DNA of 53,647 nt, filler included, from Bipalium vagum (taxonomy: Eukaryota), in the NCBI GenBank assembly GCA_037834085.1. It is 3 parts of 3 records of this genome, joined end to end, with 100 filler letters (N's around TTAATTAATTAA, not from the genome) between each part and the next. Parts side by side here need not be neighbours in the genome. Positions count along the whole stretch, not along the records: positions 19,051 to 37,868 come from JBBMKC010018090.1; 2 more parts are not named here. The stretch is one strand, 5' to 3'. Both the position numbers and the translations under genes were made by a program. Positions 37,037-37,149 of this stretch are shown one piece after another. Position 1 is the first letter of the stretch; each line of letters starts with the position of its first letter. The notes beneath the pieces were generated by a model. That model searched no databases, was not told the DNA's origin, and was given only the letters and a program-made list of their open reading frames with translations.

Positions 37037-37149
37037 TGTGAAGTAAATTGAAAATTAGTGAGGAGATGTAGCTCATCAGTCAGAACAATCCATAAGCATG
37101 TGAAAGGTCCCGAATTCGAATCCCGGTATCTCTAATTCTTCAACTAACA
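37037..37149 (+). mobile_element. 113-bp tRNA-cored mini-element, copy 1 (TG...CA ends, 5-bp TSD)
   Basis: Starts TGTGAAGTAAATTGAAAATTAG and ends TAATTCTTCAACTAACA. Flanks gtcct and gtgct match at 4 of 5 positions. Both ends are homologous to 45349-45607 on the minus strand. Confidence 0.75.
37062..37134 (+). pseudogene. tRNA-Ala(AGC)-derived sequence (degenerate)
   Basis: GGAGATGTAGCTCA...AGC ATGTGAAAGGTCCCGAATTCGAATCCCGGTATCTCTA follows the eukaryotic tRNA-Ala pattern GGGGATGTAGCTCAG...AGCATG...GAGGTCCCGGGTTCGATCCCC...CATCTCCA. The acceptor stem pairs, but the D loop, anticodon stem, T stem and G3:U70 are mutated. Confidence 0.8.

Follow-up and report, generated by a model that had tools for sequence, protein, structure and literature searches.

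What kind of sequence is the tRNA-Ala-like unit at positions 37037–37149 of this Bipalium vagum DNA: a tRNA gene, or the core of a small mobile element, and if so, moved by what? A first-pass annotation of the window (the whole stretch of 53,647 nt analysed here) had proposed a candidate new class of mini mobile element. The feature is real and mobile, and we consider it probably the solo LTR of a Helenus-like TRIM, an LTR with a Pol III promoter of tRNA-Ala origin at its core. This agrees with the first guess of that annotation, a solo mini-LTR forming a tRNA analogue of Cassandra. The class as such is not new: tRNA-bearing mini-LTR elements have been published as Helenus or TRIMp3, TRIMs whose LTRs contain A and B boxes resembling those of a tRNA (Kojima 2024, PMC10886601), with hosts among fungi, a lycophyte and six animal phyla, and with solo LTRs and their TSDs common (PMC10886601). 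The excerpted text of PMC12859917 only cites the class.

The copy on which the question was raised (copy 1) is laid out as follows.

37032–37036, plus strand: left TSD, GTCCT
37037–37149, plus strand: complete TGT...ACA unit of 113 bp, read as a probable solo LTR
37037–37061, plus strand: 5′ flank of 25 bp, putatively U3-like, containing the left arm of a stem that extends the acceptor helix
37062–37134, plus strand: decayed tRNA-Ala-like sequence (RF00005 local scan, model positions 1–71, 24.1 bits, E 0.004)
about 37069–37080, plus strand: A box of the core
37095–37097, plus strand: anticodon AGC
about 37114–37124, plus strand: B box of the core
37133–37149, plus strand: 3′ flank with the right stem arm, a T tract and the terminal ACA
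37150–37154, plus strand: right TSD, GTGCT, matching the left at 4 of 5 positions

Inspection of the sequence confirmed these unit coordinates, the TGT and ACA ends, the 25 bp of unit sequence that precede the tRNA-like part and the GTCCT and GTGCT flanks, all as first annotated. The T tract of the 3′ flank is a candidate Pol III terminator; it is interrupted in copy 1, and copy 2 and the loose ends of the contigs described below have T4 at this place.

The core had been called a tRNA-Ala. The alanine identity stands, but the tRNA itself is decayed. The copy 1 score of 24.1 bits falls below the Rfam tRNA gathering score of 29, and the match was seen only in the local scan, with none for the copy 1 tRNA when Rfam was run on the whole window. 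ARAGORN found 0 tRNA genes in the window, and relaxed settings gave noise only. The anticodon stem and T stem of copy 1 are broken, and its RNA folds no better than shuffled sequence (z +0.71). At the anticodon, copy 1 has AGC and copy 2 has TGC; in a sequencing run (X1, below), 67 contigs have CGC and 28 have TGC. Moreover, the core of copy 2 opens with 15 nt identical to the human tRNA-Ala(CGC) 5′ fragment tRF5-AlaCGC, as given in the excerpted text of PMC6237853. The Ala assignment is therefore good, with an NGC anticodon throughout and a match to a tRNA-Ala 5′ fragment, and the core is a tRNA relic without an intact cloverleaf, not a functional tRNA-Ala gene.

The Helenus consensus is TRGCY...YGG for box A and GGTTC for box B (PMC10886601). 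The box A consensus is present in copy 2 and in most X1 contigs; in copy 1 the A box is damaged, and the letters lost from it are restored in other contigs (T37076G in 74, A37078G in 63). The B box of copy 1 reads AATTCGA, with both G of GGTTC lost, and copy 2 retains G53; the contig alignments probably do not resolve letters within ~30 nt of the alignment ends, which affects the B box.

The first-pass annotation had also reported an inverted second copy with the same two ends. It is present, and carries a 156-bp insert that had not been described before. This copy (copy 2) lies within a decayed mariner.

44248–45766, minus strand: decayed mariner-like transposon with copy 2 in its 5′ leader; TIRs at 45739–45766 and 44248–44275
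45608–45612, minus strand: left TSD of copy 2 in element orientation, TTTTT
45349–45607, minus strand: copy 2, with the same two ends as copy 1 and anticodon TGC, interrupted by the insert
45386–45541, minus strand: insert of 156 bp in place of ~12 nt from the variable loop and T-stem
45344–45348, minus strand: right TSD of copy 2 in element orientation, TTTTT

The 67 bp at the start of copy 2 are 82% identical to those of copy 1 (BLAST E 5e-14), the 3′ ends are alike, and the flanks of the two copies are unrelated. Self-comparison of the 53,647-nt window yielded no third copy of the unit, and no direct pair of copies in a two-LTR arrangement was found within it. The insert of copy 2 starts with TGG and continues with an acidic 28-aa frame, a stop and an AT-rich tail, as at the end of a coding sequence; possibly it is a piece of mRNA captured via template switching. 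The insert occurs only once in the window, Rfam gives no meaningful match to it, and the PDB has none to its 28-aa frame.

The identity of the surrounding mariner is based on its TIR pair, their spacing and its transposase. The TIRs are 28 bp each, match at 24 of 28 positions, have TA at either end and span 1,519 bp, and the transposase shares 41% identity (E 3e-14) with another transposase piece of the window, one that Pfam confirms; the decayed mariner pieces themselves were not recognised by the Pfam search. Without copy 2 and one of its TSDs, the mariner would measure 1,255 bp, with 176 bp between TIR and ATG. These lengths are usual for a mariner, so copy 2 most likely entered it as a single piece together with the insert. 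Scanning with the mariner TIR for an empty site of copy 2 gave 0 loci in metagenome contigs, and in genome contigs 2 matches to bacterial MAGs, which were taken as chance. The window is rich in mariners, with further transposase fragments or TIR-like matches at 148–1175, 18272–18870 and 24539–24566 (19/28 to the mariner TIR). Just past the left TIR of the mariner lie exons of a leucine-rich-repeat-like gene (45804–47830, minus strand), which we take to resemble AMN1/FBXL.

The two copies can be used to test the claimed 5-bp TSD. The flanks of copy 1 match at 0/4 positions for a duplication of 4 bp, 4/5 for 5 bp and 1/6 for 6 bp, and those of copy 2 at 4/4, 5/5 and 4/6 respectively. A length of 5 bp is the only one that fits both copies (n=2, one imperfect at 4/5 and the other of low complexity, TTTTT). 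The joint chance of both TSDs is 7e-5 given the left 5-mers and about 1e-4 from random window pairs, while the unconditional 5-bp match rates at the two copies' spacings are 4.0% and 0.29%. The TSD as first annotated is thus upheld.

Beyond the window, we turned to sequencing run X1 (Logan contigs), which contains 0.81 of the words of positions 36200–46100 and may be the source of the assembly. Contigs were aligned to positions 36947–37246 at 80% likeness, and 392 of 1,835,864 matched, 0 at ≥99%, 6 at 95–99%, 98 at 90–95% and 288 below 90%; the first annotation had noted that its proposal would fall if only two copies existed. Contig depth is zero outside 37017–37156 and rises from 158 to 7,524 at the bin starting at 37037. 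The two best-supported 5′ loose-end sites, 37036 (18 contigs) and 37037 (27 contigs), correspond to the TGT start, and letters beyond them agree at 0.48 and 0.45, the null for unrelated flanks being 0.45 and 0.44. Each of the two 3′ loose-end rows (38 and 15 contigs) shows ...TTTTCAACTAACA followed by AT-rich sequence, and the 3′ ends of the contigs diverge past AACTAACA. These loose-end results come from 6 of 79 rows, and per-contig depth from 8 of the 392 contigs. Owing to a small deletion private to copy 1, the alignments end near 37132; the 3′ end of copy 1 is ~3 nt shorter than in the matching contigs, giving a unit length of 113–116 bp.

The unit is therefore a dispersed high-copy family with fixed TGT and ACA ends, and the objection that only two copies exist does not hold. 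Its summed depth is 22,000 on the non-tRNA 5′ flank against 16–24 in the 8 contigs listed, which suggests roughly a thousand copies, although summed depth is no true copy number. For the copy 1 locus itself X1 gave no contig at ≥99% and no flank depth, and because copy 1's own contig is absent from the matches the empty flanks are weaker evidence than they look. Pattern scans for the unit returned 0 loci in metagenome contigs and 0 in viral contigs. The earlier statement that homology stops at TG and CA holds both within the window, where flanks are unrelated, and among the contigs, which end at TGT and ACA, and the fixed contig ends and the TSD test together support a mobile element with integrase-type ends.

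The sequence just outside these ends could in principle retain traces of an LTR retrotransposon interior. In the 27-contig 5′ row there are 7 G in the 30 letters before TGT, 3 of them in the last 5, a count reached in 0/5000 draws of independent window flanks (mean 0.21). Given this excess over the null, some copies share a G-rich upstream sequence, possibly a PPT to judge by its composition, which would favour an LTR; the alternatives are a repeat of the host and a form of the unit extended at the 5′ side. A mixture simulation in which 7–9 of the 27 contigs share the sequence gives the G count and predicts an agreement of 0.48–0.52 against the 0.45 observed, an imperfect fit, and the G count may depend on the consensus rule behind the loose-end rows. 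Within the window the shared upstream motif has 1 match against 1.9 expected, which is not significant. The 3′ loose-end rows give no sign of a PBS: in the 15-contig row neither G nor C occurs among the 15 letters past ACA, as is expected of unrelated flanks (null P 0.53). A Helentron- or DINE-like insertion at TT was also considered and dropped, as G follows copy 1, and T precedes TGT in 18/45 contigs from the 5′ rows at 37036 and 37037, a share close to the background of 37%.

Sharp ends of this kind bear on whether these are simply real tRNA-Ala genes or pseudogenes spread by segmental duplication, the possibility that the first-pass annotation had itself raised against its proposal. Such an origin would account for a tRNA match spanning the whole Rfam model and for an anticodon that is always NGC. 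It is hardly credible: homology ends at TGT and ACA, among the contigs as between the two copies of the window; the flanks look like TSDs; copy 2 sits inside a mariner; and the core, with broken anticodon and T stems, scores below gathering and receives no ARAGORN call.

Another candidate is a short, LINE-mobilised SINE of tRNA-Ala origin whose leader and tail would be unusual. It would fit a tRNA-derived, high-copy unit of about 115 bp in a window with fragments of a probably non-LTR RT, and SINE2 elements do share with the unit a tRNA-derived internal promoter, small size and high copy number. SINE2 elements start at the tRNA head, end in an A-rich or simple-repeat tail and have variable TSDs. 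The unit instead has a constant 25-nt sequence ahead of tRNA +1, a fixed 3′ end 9 nt past the T4 tract with neither kind of tail, TG...CA ends, and a 5-bp duplication at both copies, where LINE-type TSDs vary in length (excerpted text of PMC8969392). Simple retroposition of a Pol III transcript would not be expected to regenerate such ends. Ends that lie outside the Pol III transcript, combined with TG...CA and a short fixed TSD, argue against a SINE, which we hold to be highly improbable. The routes able to regenerate the ends of the unit are LTR-type reverse transcription or DNA transposition. The excerpted part of the same curation guide annotates short repeats with TG/CA-type ends and TSDs of 4–6 bp as solo LTRs (PMC8969392).

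A solo LTR need not come from a TRIM. The unit might derive from an ordinary longer LTR retrotransposon, autonomous or large and non-autonomous, with a tRNA relic present by chance and no Pol III role. The ends and TSD fit this equally, the B box of copy 1 is damaged, and LTRs of Mag elements start from 145 bp in the rows excerpted from PMC3286476. Yet some two thirds of the unit are tRNA, and other contigs keep the A box while the anticodon varies between copies and its stem is broken, as in Helenus-style retention of a promoter (PMC10886601). We judge an ordinary LTR very unlikely.

DNA transposition calls for a closer look at the flanks, which had been described as complementary and as extending the acceptor stem. 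The arms TTGAAAATTA (37048–37057) and TAATTCTTCAA (37133–37143) are complementary in copy 1 and pair as described, but they are subterminal and offset from each other by 5 nt. When the two ends are compared in register over 25 bases, they match at 9/25 positions in copy 1 and 12/25 in copy 2, those of copy 2 reaching 17/25 at an offset of 5, and the true ends of the unit match each other only at TGT. With this in-register mismatch the arms are not true TIRs, and judged from sequence such subterminal, off-register arms are unlike the TIRs bound by a transposase.

These arms are central to the possibility that the unit is a whole MITE-like DNA element, complete at ~115 bp and without a two-LTR form, cut and pasted with a 5-bp stagger by an integrase-type transposase (TDD-4/5 or Ginger2-like). 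The tRNA would then be a passenger or promoter whose acceptor stem has been extended into subterminal inverted arms, and the element a class II counterpart of SINEs and Helenus. According to the excerpted text of PMC2836005, metazoan Ginger1 has TIRs of 40–270 bp, a 4-bp TSD and a CCGG or CCGT target, and metazoan Ginger2/TDD has TIRs of 50–180 bp, a 4-bp TSD and an RTATAY target; 5-bp TSDs occur only in Dictyostelium TDD elements, as far as the excerpts of PMC2836005 and PMC3845634 go. The unit resembles Ginger/TDD in its TGTNR ends, a pattern found at both of its ends and common to Ginger and Gypsy, and in a TSD length that TDD-4/5 produce (same excerpt of PMC2836005). Also in keeping with a DNA element are the 13-bp inverted arms plus acceptor stem, the solitary state of both window copies, a copy 2 interior replaced as by gap repair, and 3′ contig rows without a PBS signal.

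Set against this are the register of the arms and the match of the true ends at TGT alone. In addition, flank pairing also occurs in Helenus LTRs (by eye, in the excerpted supplement of PMC10886601), and upstream sequence common to some copies is not expected of a complete DNA element. The annotation's second suggestion, a Ginger-type MITE, finds little in copy 1: long in-register TIRs are absent, the target is GTCCT, the metazoan 4-bp TSD is not seen, and no tRNA core of Ginger appears in the excerpts of PMC2836005 and PMC3845634. A literature search for tRNA-cored MITEs, at the level of paper listings, found no such element. On balance a MITE-like element is unlikely.

A solo LTR of a Helenus-like TRIM agrees with the layout in several respects. 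As in Helenus, a tRNA-derived segment with A and B boxes sits within a short TGT...ACA unit, the tRNA is non-functional, copies number in the hundreds to thousands, and solo LTRs carry TSDs. The 113–116 bp of the unit lie within the 104–323 bp of animal Helenus LTRs (PMC10886601). In the excerpted supplement of that paper, short bivalve LTRs show by eye the same order of TGT, short flank, A box, B box, T tract and ACA, and in some elements, such as Helenus-2_TeGr, the 5′ end likewise pairs with the flank after the tRNA. Ajax and Cassandra also have a Pol III promoter in the LTR, Ajax being an animal element with a 5-bp TSD, but both carry 5S rRNA rather than tRNA (PMC10886601). The proposed origin of Helenus is insertion of a SINE2 into an LTR (PMC10886601).

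There are also differences from Helenus. The TSD, at 5 bp within the fixed 4–6 bp of Helenus in general, is 4 bp in 113/115 listed animal families, with 2 not determined (PMC10886601); rows of the excerpted supplement give 5 bp for Helenus of fungi and Selaginella. The core here is tRNA-Ala, whereas alignments of the animal groups used tRNAs for Lys or Val, with Thr in a few bivalve families and Ala in rust fungi (PMC10886601). Only the solo form has been seen here, and the host, which does not seem to be a wasp, fish or bivalve, apparently belongs to none of the host groups listed. Two flank motifs (the 5′ arm and the tRNA 3′ end) gave 0 matches in the excerpted supplement, where line breaks may hide some. 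The consensus comparison covered part of that supplement, and closer relatives are possible among the remaining sequences.

By analogy with the Helenus and Cassandra model, the A and B boxes in the 5′ LTR would start a Pol III transcript that crosses a short PBS–PPT interior and ends at the T tract of the 3′ LTR. The reverse transcriptase of an autonomous partner would then rebuild both LTR ends, its integrase would insert the DNA with a 5-bp stagger, and recombination between the LTRs would leave a solo LTR between TSDs, as at copy 1. The stagger points to a partner unlike that of known animal Helenus, namely a Mag-type Gypsy, Copia or BEL element. Animal Copia and BEL have a TSD of 5 bp. Mag-type Gypsy elements of Culex have mostly 5-bp TSDs (5/6 rows in the excerpt of PMC3286476), so a Mag-type helper is plausible; the excerpt of PMC2996953 gives a TSD range of 4–6 bp.

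The window is AT-rich animal DNA of about 25% GC, with exons for Ets, Ig/FN3 and STEEP1 among mariner and RT fragments. The host exons comprise an Ets domain (10141–10632, minus strand), Ig-Ig-FN3 in an uninterrupted 323-aa frame (19703–20674, plus strand) and STEEP1 (52082–52474, minus strand). Among the best 120 of 5256 matches, the Ets domain is 94% identical to one protein and at most 78% to named ones, with ~77% identity to wasp and bivalve homologues; the STEEP1 exon has a single match at 47%, and the Ig/FN3 exon shows about 23–25% identity. Being far from named proteomes, these exons indicate a long-branch animal, and the Ets identity of ~77% to wasp and bivalve places the host probably outside the listed Helenus host groups.

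If the unit is indeed a Helenus-like solo LTR, mini-LTR elements with a tRNA promoter would have arisen once more, probably independently, in an animal lineage that the Helenus survey apparently does not cover. Its 5-bp footprint, the only feature new for an animal Helenus-like element, would break the published 4-bp animal rule and imply a different helper integrase. This would be a modest extension of the 2024 class; the real surprise would come only if the minority MITE reading were true. In practical terms, about a thousand tRNA-Ala look-alikes may inflate the tRNA annotation of the Bipalium vagum genome.

Several other repeats occur in the window. Broken reverse transcriptase fragments (Pfam RVT_1) at 39746–40940, minus strand, are probably non-LTR. 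An exact 77-bp duplication flanks a 100-N gap at 31433–31686 and is probably an assembly artefact. At 42615–42971 a pair of 61-bp inverted repeats, 82% alike and about 240 bp apart, is a possible old MITE, and at 50487–50606 there is a 120-bp hairpin with inverted arms of ~25 bp and an inner 17-bp tandem repeat, which presumably resembles a small Tc1/pogo-type MITE.
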